Below are positions 12,001 to 27,000 of a DNA stretch of 64,000 nt, piece by piece. How positions within the stretch are numbered: the first letter of the stretch is position 1; the number at the start of each line of letters is the position of its first letter. The DNA lies in the NCBI RefSeq assembly GCF_045037415.1, contig NZ_CP173438.1; one strand, given 5' to 3'. Origin of the DNA: Escherichia coli (GTDB taxonomy: Bacteria; Pseudomonadota; Gammaproteobacteria; Enterobacterales; Enterobacteriaceae). The position numbers were made by a program.

Positions 12001-15000
12001 AAGCGTAATTCAGGTCAATGTCACAATTAACCATTGTCACAATAAGGTTGAACGGATATTCTGAGCACGGACCACGTAATATTCAATACATTATTTGCTG
12101 CCGGGTTTTTCGTGAATCAACGTAATATGTCAATAATTAATTCCACGCCAGTGCGTGTTATTGCCATTGTAGGATGTGATGGTTCAGGTAAATCGACCCT
12201 CACGGCAAGCCTGGTAAATGAACTGGCAGCAACAATGCCAACAGAACACATTTATCTCGGGCAATCGTCCGGGCGAATTGGCGAATGGATTTCACAGCTC
12301 CCTGTTATTGGCGCACCTTTTGGGCGTTATCTGCGAAGTAAAGCGGCACATGTGCACGAAAAGCCCTCCACACCGCCTGGCAATATGACTGCGCTGGTTA
12401 TCTATCTGCTTTCCTGCTGGCGGGCGTATAAGTTTCGCAAAATGTTGTGTAAAAGCCAGCAAGGCTATCTGCTCATCACCGACCGCTACCCGCAGGTTGA
12501 AGTGCCGGGTTTTCGCTTTGATGGCCCGCAATTGGCAAAAACCACGGGCGGTAACGGTTGGATAAAAATGTTAAGGCAGCGCGAGCTGAAGCTGTACCAA
12601 TGGATGGCATCTTATTTGCCCGTATTGTTGATTCGTCTTGGCATTGATGAACAAACCGCGTTTGCGCGTAAACCTGACCACCAACTGGCGGCGTTACAGG
12701 AAAAAATCGCCGTTACGCCGCAACTGACATTTAATGGCGCCAGGATCCTTGAACTGGATGGTCGGCAACCAGCCGATGAAATTCTGCAAGCGTCACTACG
12801 CGCAATTCAAGCTGCGCTTTCCTGATCACCAAAATGGATAGGGGATGATTTAACGAATGGACGCACTACAAACACAAACTGTTAATAGTACAACCGCGCC
12901 GCAGCCCAACTACATTCCGGGGCTGATTGCGGTGGTCGGGTGTGATGGCACCGGTAAATCCACACTGACCACCGACCTCGTGAAATCGCTGCAACAACAC
13001 TGGCAAACCGAGCGGCGCTATCTGGGGCTGCTCTCGGGCGAAGACGGCGACAAAATCAAACGATTGCCGTTGGTTGGCGTCTGGCTCGAAAGGCGACTGG
13101 CGGCCAAATCATCGAAAACCCAAAGCATGAAAACCCAAAGCATGAAAACCAAATCTCCAGCGCTATGGGCGGCGGTGATTATGTACTGCTTCTCGCTGCG
13201 AAGAATGGCGAATCTACGCAAGGTTCAGCGACTGGCGCAAAGTGGCGTTCTGGTGGTCAGCGATCGCTTCCCGCAGGCTGAAATTTCGGGCTTTTATTAT
13301 GACGGACCGGGGATCGGCGTCGAACGTGCGACCGGGAAAATCAGCATGTTTCTGGCGCAGCGCGAACGGCGTTTATACCAAAAAATGGCGCAATACCGTC
13401 CTGAATTAATCATTCGTTTGGGGATTGATATTGATACTGCCATCTCCCGCAAGCCTGACCATGACTATGCCGAGCTGCAGGACAAAATCGGCGTCATGTC
13501 GACGATTGGCTATAACGGCACAAAAATTCTTGAGATTGATTCCAGAGCGCCCTACAGCGAAGTGCTGGAACAGGCACAGAAGGCGGTTTCTCTGGTTGCC
13601 ATCGTTTCTGACCGCCGAAGTTTAACTTAAGGCTGGCGGGATACTTTTTACTATCAACGATAAGGTCAGGCTGAATTGGCGGGTTTTAACATCAAACATT
13701 GGTTTGCAGATGGCGCGTTTCGCACCATTATTCGCAATAGCGCCTGGTTAGGCTCCAGTAATGTCGTGAGCGCTTTACTGGGTCTGTTGGCGCTCTCGTG
13801 TGCCGGTAAAGGGATGACGCCCGCCATGTTTGGCGTACTGGTGATTGTACAATCGTACGCCAAGTCGATCAGCGATTTTATTAAGTTTCAGATATGGCAG
13901 CTGGTGGTTCAGTACGGAACACCAGCATTAACCAACAATAATCCGCAGCAATTCCGCAATGTCGTCTCATTTTCCTTCTCGCTGGATATCGTCAGCGGCG
14001 CGGTGGCGATTGTCGGCGGCATTGCCTTACTCCCTTTTCTTTCCCATTCATTAGGTCTGGATGACCAAAGCTTTTGGCTGGCAGCGCTGTATTGCACGCT
14101 CATTCCTTCAATGGCTTCCTCCACGCCGACCGGCATTCTGCGTGCGGTAGATCGCTTCGATCTAATTGCTGTACAGCAAGCGACGAAACCTTTTCTGCGC
14201 GCAGCGGGGAGCGTCGTAGCCTGGTATTTTGACTTTGGTTTTGCGGGTTTTGTTATTGCCTGGTACGTGTCGAATCTGGTTGGCGGCACCATGTACTGGT
14301 GGTTTGCCGCGCGCGAATTACGCCGCAGAAATATCCATAACGCCTTCAAATTGAATCTGTTTGAGTCTGCCCGACACATTAAAGGCGCGTGGAGTTTTGT
14401 CTGGTCAACCAACATTGCCCACTCCATCTGGTCGGCGCGTAACTCGTGCAGCACAGTGCTGGTGGGGATCGTGTTAGGACCCGCTGCCGCCGGGTTATTT
14501 AAAATCGCCATGACATTCTTCGACGCCGCCGGAACGCCAGCGGGTTTACTGGGCAAAAGTTTTTACCCAGAGGTGATGCGTTTAGATCCGCGCACCACCA
14601 GACCGTGGTTGTTAGGCGTGAAGTCAGGTTTACTGGCGGGCGGAATTGGTATTCTGGTGGCGCTCGCGGTGTTGATCGTCGGCAAGCCGCTTATTTCGCT
14701 GGTGTTTGGCGTTAAGTATCTCGAAGCGTATGACCTGATTCAGGTGATGCTGGGCGCAATTGTGATTTCGATGCTGGGCTTCCCACAGGAGTCATTGCTA
14801 TTGATGGCGGGAAAACAGCGCGCTTTTCTCGTGGCGCAAACCATCGCCTCAATCGGCTACATCGTATTGCTGTTCATGTTCTGTCATCTGTTTGGCGTGC
14901 TGGGAGCAGCGTTTGCTTATTTCGGTGGGCAATGTCTGGATGTGGTGCTCTCGTTAATTCCGACCTTAAAGGCATTTTTTCAGCGCCATTCCTTGCTTTA

Positions 15001-24000: not shown

Positions 24001-27000
24001 CTGCGCGAGTACCGCTGATGGGCGTGCGGGACGAGTATCAGTTCAGCCGCATCGGCCCGGTGATTGCGTTGTTATTGATTGAAGCCTTACGCGATCCGTT
24101 TGCCCGCCGGAAGATCGATGCGCTGGAGATGTCATGGATCCTCGAAACCAATACAGGCATGAATAACATGCTGGAACGCATTGGGGCGGAGCCGTACAAG
24201 CGTTACCGATTGTATGAAAAGCAGATTTGATGGCAGTCACCCCTGCTTCATCTCCAGCGGCACCGCCGAGCGAATCAAATGGTGGCCTTCCAGCTCGATA
24301 TCGTGGAGATTCTTTTTCACGGTCCGCACATGATCGCGTGCTGCGCGCTGGGCGACGTGCGGCAGCCGCTGCAACACCGCGTTGTAGATCCGCGCATGCT
24401 GGCGATCGATCTGCTTTTTTTGCTGTGGTCGATGGTAGAGATTATTTACGCTGGCAAACACCGAATTAAACATCAGGTCGGTCAATGATTGCAGCGTAAA
24501 CTCCAGCACCTGATTGTGAGAAGCCTGACAAATGGCGAGATGGAAAGCGTGATCCAACTGCGCATGTTCGATCAGCGAAATCTCTTTGTTGTTCTCACTG
24601 GCGGCGAGCATTTTTTCATAACAGCGGGTTATCACAACAAAATCAGCCTGGGTTCCCAGCGTTGCCGCCAGCCTTGCCGATTCGCCCTCCAGTAATGCGC
24701 GAACGTCGAGCAGATCGTACAGCGTTCGCGGCTGCGTACTGAACAGATGGATCAGCGGGCTGGTGTCCTGCACCCGATTAAGCCGTGCGACACGAGAATC
24801 GCGACCCTGCGCCGTTTCAATAATCCCGCGCCCGCGCAGCACGGTCAGCCCTTCACGCAGTGCGGAGCGTGAGAAGCCGAGCTTTTCACACAGTCGACGT
24901 TCCGAGGGAAGCGGCTGACCGACCTTCAGTACGCCGTCGATAATTAACCGTTCGATACTCTCTGCAACCACTTCGCAAATAGGGCGACGTTCATCTTTCA
25001 TTCCCGGACCTCGTGCACAGGTAGGACCAATTTTTCTGTTCTTAACTCGCAAAACACGCACATCACGTAAGTGATTATGTTACATCAATTTAACATTAAG
25101 TTAACCAAGACAAGGTCACAGAGCTGGAAAAAAAATGGTCTGACCGGTAGCTAAAGAGATAGACGAAAACGAAAAGCCCGCTTAATAACTGTTCACAGAA
25201 GCAGCGCGAAAAAATCAGCTGCCACACAACACAACAAAGCGAAGCCTACTCATGAGCATCTTGTACGAAGAGCGTCTTGATGGCGCTTTACCCGATGTCG
25301 ACCGCACATCGGTACTGATGGCACTGCGTGAGCATGTCCCTGGACTTGAGATCCTGCATACCGATGAGGAGATCATTCCTTACGAGTGTGACGGGTTGAG
25401 CGCGTATCGCACGCGTCCATTACTGGTTGTTCTGCCTAAGCAGATGGAACAGGTGACGGCGATTCTGGCTGTCTGCCACCGCCTGCGTGTACCGGTGGTG
25501 ACCCGTGGTGCAGGCACCGGGCTTTCTGGTGGCGCGCTGCCGCTGGAAAAAGGTGTGTTGTTGGTGATGGCGCGCTTTAAAGAGATCCTCGACATTAACC
25601 CCGTTGGTCGCCGTGCGCGCGTGCAGCCGGGCGTGCGTAACCTGGCGATCTCCCAGGCCGTTGCGCCGCATAATCTCTATTACGCGCCGGATCCGTCCTC
25701 ACAAATCGCCTGTTCGATTGGCGGCAATGTGGCGGAAAATGCCGGTGGCGTTCACTGCCTGAAATATGGTCTAACCGTACATAACCTGCTGAAAATTGAA
25801 GTGCAAACGCTGGATGGCGAGGCGCTGACGCTGGGATCGGACGCGCTGGATTCGCCTGGTTTTGACCTGCTGGCGCTGTTTACCGGATCGGAAGGTATGC
25901 TCGGCGTGACCACCGAAGTGACGTTAAAACTGCTGCCGAAGCCGCCCGTGGCGCGGGTGCTGTTAGCCAGCTTTGACTCGGTAGAAAAAGCCGGACTTGC
26001 GGTTGGTGACATCATCGCCAATGGCATTATCCCCGGCGGGCTGGAGATGATGGATAACCTGTCGATCCGCGCTGCGGAAGATTTTATACATGCCGGTTAT
26101 CCCGTCGATGCCGAAGCGATTTTATTGTGCGAGCTGGACGGCGTGGAGTCTGACGTACAGGAAGACTGCGAGCGGGTTAACGACATCTTGTTGAAAGCGG
26201 GCGCGACTGACGTCCGTCTGGCACAGGACGAAGCAGAGCGCGTACGTTTCTGGGCCGGCCGCAAGAACGCATTCCCGGCAGTGGGGCGCATTTCCCCGGA
26301 TTACTACTGTATGGATGGCACCATCCCACGCCGCGCGCTGCCTGGCGTACTGGAAGGCATTGCCCGTTTATCGCAGCAATATGATTTACGCGTTGCCAAC
26401 GTCTTTCATGCCGGAGACGGCAACATGCACCCGTTAATCCTTTTCGATGCCAACGAACCCGGTGAATTTGCCCGCGCGGAAGAGCTGGGCGGGAAGATCC
26501 TCGAACTCTGCGTTGAAGTTGGCGGCAGCATCAGTGGGGAACATGGCATTGGGCGCGAAAAAATCAATCAAATGTGCGCCCAGTTCAACAGCGATGAAAT
26601 CACGACCTTCCATGCGGTCAAGGCGGCGTTTGACCCCGATGGTTTGCTGAACCCTGGGAAAAACATTCCCACGCTACACCGCTGTGCTGAATTTGGTGCC
26701 ATGCATGTGCATCACGGTCATTTACCTTTCCCTGAACTGGAGCGTTTCTGATGCTACGCGAGTGTGATTACAGCCAGGCGCTGCTGGAGCAGGTGAATCA
26801 GGCGATTAGCGATAAAACGCCGCTGGTGATTCAGGGCAGCAATAGCAAAGCCTTTTTAGGTCGTCCTGTCACCGGGCAAACGCTGGATGTGCGTTGTCAT
26901 CGCGGCATTGTTAATTACGACCCGACCGAGCTGGTGATAACCGCTCGTGCCGGAACGCCGCTGGTGGCGATTGAAGCGGCGCTGGAGAGCGCCGGGCAAA

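Follow-up and report, generated by a model that had tools for sequence, protein, structure and literature searches.

What does Escherichia coli encode between yghQ and yghO, two genes that lie on either side of an IS5 copy in the laboratory strain K-12, and how did K-12 come to lack it? We addressed this question in a stretch of 64,000 nucleotides of E. coli DNA (contig NZ_CP173438.1 of assembly GCF_045037415.1), referred to as the window. In the window, an intact block locates between yghQ and yghO. It contains an open reading frame (ORF) of 274 amino acids (aa), which we call orf274, a ytfJ-like gene, paralogues of lptF and lptG, and genes for a serine palmitoyltransferase (spt), an acyl carrier protein (ACP), a short-chain dehydrogenase/reductase (SDR) and a fatty acyl-AMP ligase. 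The ORFs lie where the first-pass annotation of this DNA had placed them and belong to the families that it named. The region is very probably the sphingolipid locus of Escherichia, which the genus inherited from its ancestor and which the K-12 lineage lost in an IS5-associated deletion.

Organization of the locus

Every gene of the locus is an intact coding sequence (CDS) in HS1496, a human urine strain whose annotated genome is 100% identical to the window. On the plus strand, yghQ (449 aa) is followed by orf274, the YtfJ-family gene and the lptF/lptG pair, referred to as lptF2 and lptG2. On the minus strand, the genes for the ligase (aasR), the SDR (cerR), the ACP (acpR) and spt converge on lptG2, and yghO, again on the plus strand, diverges from the ligase gene. 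The pairs yghQ/orf274, lptF2/lptG2, aasR/cerR and acpR/spt overlap or abut. These overlaps, together with a hairpin between lptG2 and spt, indicate two convergent operons plus the divergent yghO. Judged by its sequence, the hairpin is likely a bidirectional terminator. We assigned families by comparing NCBIfam profile scores with the curated cutoffs; the ACP and SDR/epimerase matches are weaker than those of Spt, LptF, LptG, YtfJ and the ligase. The features are listed by position in the window.

11246..11938, minus strand: yghT, thymidylate-kinase-like P-loop paralogue of 230 aa, with a weak dTMP kinase match of 25.9 bits (cutoff 83); kept in K-12
12112..12825, plus strand: yghS, thymidylate-kinase-like P-loop paralogue of 237 aa
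12857..13630, plus strand: yghR, thymidylate-kinase-like P-loop paralogue, 257 aa here and 252 aa in K-12
13676..15025, plus strand: yghQ, full-length flippase of the MOP superfamily (Wzx/Polysacc_synt type), 449 aa; codons 1-355 remain in K-12
15025..15849, plus strand: orf274, cytoplasmic all-helical protein with a predicted CHAD-domain fold, without Pfam or NCBIfam family
15858..16421, plus strand: ytfJ-like gene (ytfJ2), predicted periplasmic protein with the signal peptide ...LLAQGVQA/HNF; TIGR01626, 216 bits (cutoff 151)
16452..17522, plus strand: lptF2, paralogue of the lipopolysaccharide (LPS) export permease LptF; TIGR04407, 316 bits (cutoff 230)
17519..18598, plus strand: lptG2, LptG paralogue with a 4-nt overlap with the lptF2 stop; TIGR04408, 306 bits (cutoff 240)
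18596..18630, no strand: GC-rich hairpin with a 16-bp stem between the convergent lptG2 and spt, from a consensus-match scan
18633..19805, minus strand: spt, serine palmitoyltransferase; NF047599, 600 bits (cutoff 500)
19805..20053, minus strand: acpR, specialised acyl carrier protein of 82 aa directly upstream of spt; ACP matches
20085..20999, minus strand: cerR/epi, NAD-dependent SDR, presumed 3-oxo reductase; epimerase/SDR matches
20996..22684, minus strand: aasR, fatty acyl-AMP ligase / acyl-AcpR synthetase; NF006624, 868 bits (cutoff 600)
22685..23087, no strand: divergent aasR–yghO intergenic region, AT-rich (about 40% GC), deleted in K-12
23088..24230, plus strand: yghO, presumed bacterial ceramide synthase (N-acyltransferase, GNAT-like); first 13 codons gone in K-12
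14744..23127, no strand: interval absent from K-12, with a 1,195-bp IS5 in its place

Loss of the locus from K-12

Alignment of the K-12 record (L002) to the window is confined to positions 9000-14744 and 23128-29000. Between these two parts stands a complete IS5 of 1,195 bp (L002 5730-6924), whose ends read GGAAGGTGCG...CGCACCTTCC. What K-12 has lost is 94 codons at the end of yghQ, eight complete genes, the aasR/yghO intergenic region and codons 1-13 of yghO. The first-pass annotation had put the missing block at roughly 9 kb; the block is real, and its size is 8,384 bp.

IS5 prefers the target YTAR. The 4-bp flanks of the K-12 copy, TTAG on the left and TTAA on the right, both fit this preference, and there is no target-site duplication. 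Both intramolecular transposition and recombination of one IS5 copy with another could produce such a pattern. From the complete IS5 placed precisely at the junction, the truncated genes on either side of it and the missing duplication, we conclude that the K-12 lineage lost the block by an IS5-associated deletion, as had been suspected from the window. In all three respects (the complete element at the junction, the YTAR-fitting flanks and the missing direct duplication) the structure resembles IS5-adjacent deletions in E. coli K-12. Its sole oddity is the left flank, which is TTAG in K-12 and TCAG in intact strains.

In K-12, yghQ ends at a TAG in codon 356, just before IS5, leaving 355 aa, the length that the first-pass annotation had given for this gene. 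The same codon is CAG in intact strains, including the window strain and NCTC9967, which has an intact locus and is closer to K-12. At the left junction, K-12 reads GATTTAG followed by IS5 (L002 5720-5733), where the window (14734-14746) and NCTC9967 read GATTCAGGTG. We notice that the C-to-T difference in this flank (TTAG vs TCAG) gives rise to the stop codon of yghQ and, at the same time, to a YTAR-type target for IS5.

Records of K-12 differ in their annotation of the two truncated genes. In NC_000913.3, yghO (b2981) is an ordinary CDS of 390 aa, described as a 'putative DNA-binding transcriptional regulator', with its 5' end 70 bp inside IS5LO, and yghQ is a 355-aa transporter; neither carries a pseudogene flag. 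The first-pass annotation had named yghO as the pseudogene of K-12, which the records read here do not confirm; in those annotated with the Prokaryotic Genome Annotation Pipeline (PGAP), yghQ carries the pseudogene flag (incomplete). We propose that yghT, yghS, yghR, yghQ' and 'yghO of K-12 are orphan remnants of the locus. Although K-12 yghQ (355 aa) and yghO are truncated, published work has handled them like complete genes: yghQ has been treated as a chlorhexidine-resistance marker (PMC8170033), and yghO has been listed as a gene that IS5 is 'inserted in' (PMC11677980). In the literature, of which our coverage is incomplete, we found no description of the K-12 deletion as the loss of a sphingolipid locus.

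Distribution and ancestry in Escherichia

We counted the block in 5,426 complete E. coli genomes, taking at least 80% coverage as presence. It is present in 4,063 of them (75%), and another 1,150 (about 21%) have no match to it at all. The yghQ'-IS5-'yghO structure occurs in 356 genomes; among the matches listed for this structure, 40 of 40 are laboratory derivatives of K-12 (e.g. MG1655, C600, J53, ER1709). Compared with K-12 and with this panel, the window thus behaves as the first-pass annotation had anticipated, K-12 being without the genes of the block. RefSeq genomes of E. coli with an intact locus are annotated identically and share 96-100% DNA identity with the window. E. whittamii and two other Escherichia lineages share all 13 genes and their order, and glcC follows downstream there too, which indicates that the intact arrangement is ancestral. 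The locus is also kept across many Enterobacterales at 60-88% amino-acid identity.

If the block were instead a horizontally acquired island in the lineage of the window strain, K-12 would represent the original empty site. Its variable presence among E. coli fits this idea, as do its different neighbourhoods in other genera, such as the usp/pit genes in Pluralibacter. However, the block occurs in three quarters of the E. coli genomes and in other Escherichia species with the same flanks, its GC content is ordinary (0.49-0.54), and the K-12 junction shows two truncated genes around a complete IS5 without target-site duplication. Such an acquisition is hardly conceivable on this evidence, and the truncation of both yghQ and yghO in K-12 refutes it for practical purposes.

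Meanwhile, the ancestral locus has been lost elsewhere. In JNEC-KY203, an IS1 follows yghT, and the genes from yghS through the glc operon are missing. In UTAK-5, the 274-aa gene is cut short by an IS1, beyond which comes a capsule-type locus. Both are losses independent of K-12. One strain carries an ISKpn26 insertion at the locus.

The ratio of nonsynonymous to synonymous substitution rates (dN/dS) against E. whittamii is 0.02-0.13 for all 13 genes from yghT to yghO (yghT 0.079, yghS 0.133), and that of glcC is 0.022. The low values across 13 genes show that the locus is kept by purifying selection where it is retained. K-12 is without a lipid pathway for which the majority of natural and pathogenic E. 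coli have the genes, among them the probiotic Nissle, O157:H7 and the production strain BL21. It follows that envelope biology based on K-12 may miss an outer-membrane lipid, and this lipid may matter for host interaction or for antibiotic or detergent tolerance.

Genes assigned to ceramide synthesis

The biosynthetic part of the locus has been studied in another strain. Padilla-Gomez et al. 2022 cloned and assayed the BL21(DE3) orthologues ECD_02851 (AasR), ECD_02853 (AcpR) and ECD_02854 (Spt) (PMC9386255). ECD_02850-02854 is the same locus, with the same five genes in the same order. ECD_02853 is a specialised ACP (AcpR) carrying 4'-phosphopantetheine, and this AcpR_Ec is acylated by ECD_02851 (AasR_Ec). 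ECD_02854 (Spt) favours acyl-AcpR and converts serine and palmitoyl-AcpR into 3-oxo-sphinganine, which is also made when the three E. coli proteins AasR, AcpR and Spt are co-expressed (PMC9386255). The same study assigned ECD_02852 (epi/CerR) as the reductase, orthologous to CC_1164, and yghO (ECD_02850, aca/bCerS) as the N-acyltransferase, orthologous to CC_1154, and noted that the five dihydroceramide genes are clustered only in Caulobacter and E. coli BL21 (PMC9386255). It covers these five genes only and does not discuss yghQ, the 274-aa gene, the ytfJ-like gene, lptF2/G2 or yghRST; we found no mention of K-12 in it.

The first-pass annotation had regarded the system as undescribed. That view does not stand: besides the BL21(DE3) enzymes, the operons of UTI89 have been drawn in a preprint of April 2026 (10.64898/2026.04.12.717747), and RefSeq already uses the gene name spt for the serine palmitoyltransferase gene of the window. 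The ceramide synthesis and export cluster itself is already known, and the kinase-like and CHAD-like additions go beyond the literature that we found. Its absence from K-12 probably explains the obscurity of the locus outside the sphingolipid field.

We compared the locus with the rhodobacterial sphingolipid (dihydroceramide) gene set. In the window, Spt matches the proteobacterial-type serine palmitoyltransferase model NF047599. acpR lies immediately upstream in the same operon and shares its end base with the start of spt, as expected for a dedicated ACP, and the ligase gene also belongs to the spt operon. The specificity of AasR for AcpR comes from the BL21(DE3) work, as does the orthology of CerR to CC_1164 (PMC9386255); the SDR fold of CerR is confirmed here.

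Spt belongs to the alpha-oxoamine synthase family and has secondary matches to BioF, Kbl and CqsA. Given the breadth of this family, Spt and its partners might produce an alpha-oxoamine other than a sphingolipid, either a signal or another aminolipid, for export by an LptFG-like pump. We consider such a product very unlikely. The best match of Spt is the curated serine palmitoyltransferase model, above its cutoff, Spt_Ec makes 3-oxo-sphinganine from serine and palmitoyl-AcpR (PMC9386255), and the five-gene set matches the ceramide set of Caulobacter.

In the sphingolipid pathway, AasR would charge the dedicated carrier AcpR with a fatty acid, and condensation of the acyl-AcpR with serine by Spt would yield 3-oxo-sphinganine, following the near-identical BL21(DE3) orthologues. 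By orthology with Caulobacter, YghO (bCerS) would N-acylate the product, and CerR would reduce the 3-oxo group to yield dihydroceramide. For Caulobacter, it is a matter of debate which of these two reactions comes first and where in the cell CerR resides (PMC11087976).

Probable genes for transport

YghQ matches MOP flippases, and its orthologues carry PF01943 and PF13440. It has several hydrophobic segments, three of which lie beyond residue 349 and hence are lost in K-12. In Caulobacter, CC_1166, a flippase of the Polysacc_synt type, and LptF2/G2/C2 were earlier proposed for transport (PMC11324152). By analogy, YghQ may flip the lipid across the inner membrane.

LptF2 and LptG2, encoded by adjacent genes, are a full-length F+G pair above the curated cutoffs for LptF (316 vs 230) and LptG (306 vs 240). 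Both are distant from their E. coli counterparts, with E-values of 3.4e-25 against LptF (6mhu_F) and 1.8e-41 against LptG (6mhu_G). A Ser-Glu of the coupling-helix region, which we take to be the LptB contact, aligns in both proteins with the solved LptF and LptG. Like its Caulobacter counterpart, the cluster has no gene for an LptB. lptF2/lptG2 are missing from more than 20% of the E. coli genomes. We ruled out that the pair is the essential housekeeping copy for LPS, as it is distant from the E. coli LptFG structures and absent from viable K-12. The likeness to the LptB2FG extractor of LPS lies in the full-length scores above the LptF and LptG cutoffs and in the aligned Ser-Glu. In contrast to LptB2FG, the pair is encoded in a lipid-synthesis cluster, and its substrate would be a sphingolipid rather than LPS. 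The RefSeq name 'LPS export ABC transporter permease LptF/LptG' for the paralogues at 16452-18598 is probably over-specific.

The April 2026 preprint reports that Caulobacter LptF2 and LptG2 form a complex, bind the single LptB and act in sphingolipid transport. There, lptF2, lptG2 and lptC2 can be deleted only in the absence of anionic sphingolipid synthesis, and Figure 2B draws the E. coli UTI89 sphingolipid operons beside Caulobacter LptF2/G2 (10.64898/2026.04.12.717747). By analogy, LptF2 and LptG2 of E. coli, powered by the housekeeping LptB, would likewise extract the lipid to the Lpt bridge towards the outer membrane.

Comparing the two loci, we find that E. coli and Caulobacter CC_1152-CC_1168 share the five ceramide genes, a flippase of the Polysacc_synt type, and LptF/LptG paralogues without an LptB of their own. 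On the other hand, E. coli has no cpgA/B/C (head group), CC_1152/1153, CC_1157/1158, CC_1167 or lptC2. Its own three Tmk-like P-loop genes, CHAD-fold gene and YtfJ-like gene do not, in turn, appear among the genes listed for the Caulobacter locus. Owing to these differences, a different head group is expected.

The kinase-like proteins YghR, YghS and YghT

YghR, YghS and YghT are paralogues with pairwise identities of 31-39%, and they carry Walker A and DR[YF]P motifs. Against the dTMP kinase model TIGR00041 they score 25-31 bits, below the equivalog cutoff of 83. Structure models predict a P-loop nucleoside monophosphate (NMP) kinase fold, closest to thymidylate kinase. A single-sequence search of the PDB with YghR returned nothing significant. 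Two features set the proteins apart from thymidylate kinase and other NMP kinases: an additional helical insertion, and their presence as a set of three paralogues within a lipid cluster. By calling yghS and yghT 'dTMP kinase', RefSeq probably over-annotates them.

We also observed a 15-bp tandem repeat of 3.1 copies in yghR (13104-13150), with one extra unit compared with K-12. The extra unit adds KTQSM relative to YghR of K-12 and E. whittamii and falls in a low-confidence loop of the model.

The CHAD-fold protein orf274

The orf274 family is small: 1.84 billion representatives yielded 207 clusters of it at 50% identity. PF05235 does not match the E. coli member, which has no Pfam or NCBIfam family. 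Among 81 relatives, PF05235 is matched by 3 at E<=0.001 and by 22 at E<=0.1, and the best PDB sequence match of the family profile is a CHAD protein (E 0.003). The AlphaFold model, built on an alignment of 81 sequences, has a predicted local distance difference test (pLDDT) score of 97 and displays the three-dimensional fold of CHAD. The residues R88, K92, R95, H105, D123, H193, R196, K197, H237 and D238 are invariant or nearly so. Its closest known counterpart is the CHAD domain (PF05235), a helical domain that binds polyphosphate, with examples in Ricinus (6qv5), PptA (6rn5) and YgiF (5a61). In contrast to CHAD proteins, orf274 is found among membrane-lipid genes, not with polyphosphate granules or CYTH.

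Some relatives are tandem duplications, such as P0125 with 564 aa. In P0252 and P0269 (about 980 aa), two orf274-like copies are fused to an N-terminal region with an HGDLKPxNLFFD motif. This region was recognised by eye as apparently typical of aminoglycoside/choline-kinase-like kinases, and it may connect the CHAD-like fold with another type of kinase, unrelated to YghR/S/T. No NCBIfam domains were detected in the long fusion relatives.

A conserved gene neighbourhood across genera

A genome scan with 15 closer orf274 sequences, taking one genome per species, retrieved 79 loci. yghQ lies within 1.5 kb of orf274 in 68 of them, a YghR/S/T-type gene within 5 kb in 52, and spt within 10 kb in 44; in many genera, yghT homologues are syntenic with yghQ and orf274. 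The loci come from Enterobacterales, Xanthomonadales, Sphingomonadales, Acetobacteraceae and a betaproteobacterial metagenome-assembled genome (MAG). Two of these groups, Sphingomonadales and Acetobacteraceae, are well known for making sphingolipids. Luteibacter has yghS, yghR, an OlsC/LpxO-like hydroxylase gene, aasR, cerR, acpR, spt, yghQ, orf274 and a second copy, orf274', in this order in a single operon on one strand. We found no published description of the three kinase-like genes and the CHAD-like gene travelling with the cluster.

The question arises whether YghR/S/T, YghQ and orf274 are tied to sphingolipids in function, or whether they form an independent module for polysaccharide or glycolipid export that is a mere neighbour of the sphingolipid genes in enterobacteria. 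YghQ does resemble Wzx-type polysaccharide flippases, and the genes stand beside glycosyltransferases in Acetobacter and in the betaproteobacterial MAG. In Sphingomonadales and Acetobacteraceae they are not within 10 kb of spt; however, sphingolipid genes of sphingomonads are known to be scattered (PMC11324152). Moreover, the 79 loci fall in orders known or predicted to make sphingolipids, the module shares strand and operon with aasR-cerR-acpR-spt in Luteibacter, Rhodanobacter and Dyella, and in Serratia the three kinase-like genes sit between spt and yghQ. An independent export module, the main rival on this point, appears doubtful to us, and a functional tie to sphingolipids is rather probable.

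What the module does is a more tentative matter. It is possible that YghR/S/T, YghQ and orf274 form a conserved sphingolipid module, which builds or handles a phosphate-containing head group of ceramide and flips the lipid across the inner membrane. The idea of a phosphate head group comes from the acceptor of NMP-kinase-type enzymes, which is itself a phosphate, and from the binding of phosphate polymers by CHAD folds. In this scheme, based on synteny and fold, YghR/S/T and the CHAD-fold protein would add or handle a phosphate-type head group. The kinase-like and CHAD-like genes are thus candidates for the head-group chemistry of enterobacterial and sphingomonad sphingolipids.

The ytfJ-like gene adjoins orf274 in 44 of the 79 loci, and it joins the module, like lptF2G2, only in enterobacterial loci. 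Its product has an N-terminal hydrophobic segment, and a single-sequence PDB search with it gave nothing significant. It may be an enterobacterial accessory of LptF2G2, which would assist the Lpt2 step from the periplasm.

Three further genes were noticed beside these loci. The OlsC/LpxO-like gene inside the Luteibacter sphingolipid operon (L043 3449-4207) encodes a lipid acyl 2-hydroxylase homologue. A homologue of the LmtA-like lipid A 1-phosphate methyltransferase lies beside a yghT-like gene in the betaproteobacterial MAG (L079 12783-13700). In Serratia liquefaciens, a small DAGK_prokar (dgkA-like) lipid kinase gene is located directly downstream of yghO (L003/L004 11354-11716); a partner acting as a ceramide or diacylglycerol kinase, absent from the E. 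coli locus, is a possible role for it.

Is the pathway used in nature?

Several points weigh against a functional sphingolipid locus in E. coli. BL21(DE3) with empty vectors showed no 3-oxo-sphinganine on thin-layer chromatography (PMC9386255), meaning that native expression was undetectable under those conditions, and in the literature, within the same incomplete coverage, we found no report of sphingolipids from wild-type E. coli. YghO has no sequence match in Pfam, NCBIfam or the PDB; its role is drawn from published orthology, and its orthologues have a faint PF00583 match. CerR of E. coli has no visible signal peptide, and Caulobacter CerR is reported to be periplasmic (PMC11087976). As cpgABC and lptC2 are absent from the cluster, the head group cannot be inferred. 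Neighbourhood and predicted fold are the grounds for the roles suggested for YghQ, YghR/S/T, orf274 and YtfJ2. Finally, repeated loss through IS1 and IS5, together with the roughly one fifth of genomes that have no block, makes the locus dispensable.

Part of this could be explained by a silent relic, in which the enzymes work when over-expressed and the pathway is unused in nature and being lost. BL21(DE3) without detectable 3-oxo-sphinganine unless over-expressed would agree with it, and so would the independent IS5, IS1 and ISKpn26 insertions or deletions; the AT-rich regulatory region could be silenced. Yet 13 of 13 genes are intact, their dN/dS values are similar to that of glcC, and the locus is kept in most E. 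coli genomes and across many Enterobacterales. We judge a relic to be unlikely and prefer the reading of a sphingolipid locus ancestral to Escherichia.

Other features of the window

Promoter-like sites in the scan were not above chance, with 15 found and 16.5 in shuffled sequence, and so no promoter conclusion is drawn. Rfam returned zero RNA families in window positions 9000-27000.

Further downstream, at about 33800-37500, the HS1496 annotation shows an IS4 transposase gene with a frameshift and, after it, the decayed remains of a type II secretion locus: part of gspK, gspL with a frameshift, and yghD. The segment at about 38600-56000 is a group 2 (kps-type) capsule locus and includes kpsF, kpsE, kdsB and a gene of the CDP-glycerol glycerophosphotransferase family encoding 1,266 aa; it is consistent with an extraintestinal pathogenic strain. 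The end of the window, from about 57000 to 64000, is an island remnant with a CbtA/YeeU-type toxin-antitoxin pair, an antirestriction gene, a JAB-domain gene, DUF932/DUF4942 genes and a frameshifted toxin gene of the AbiEii family.

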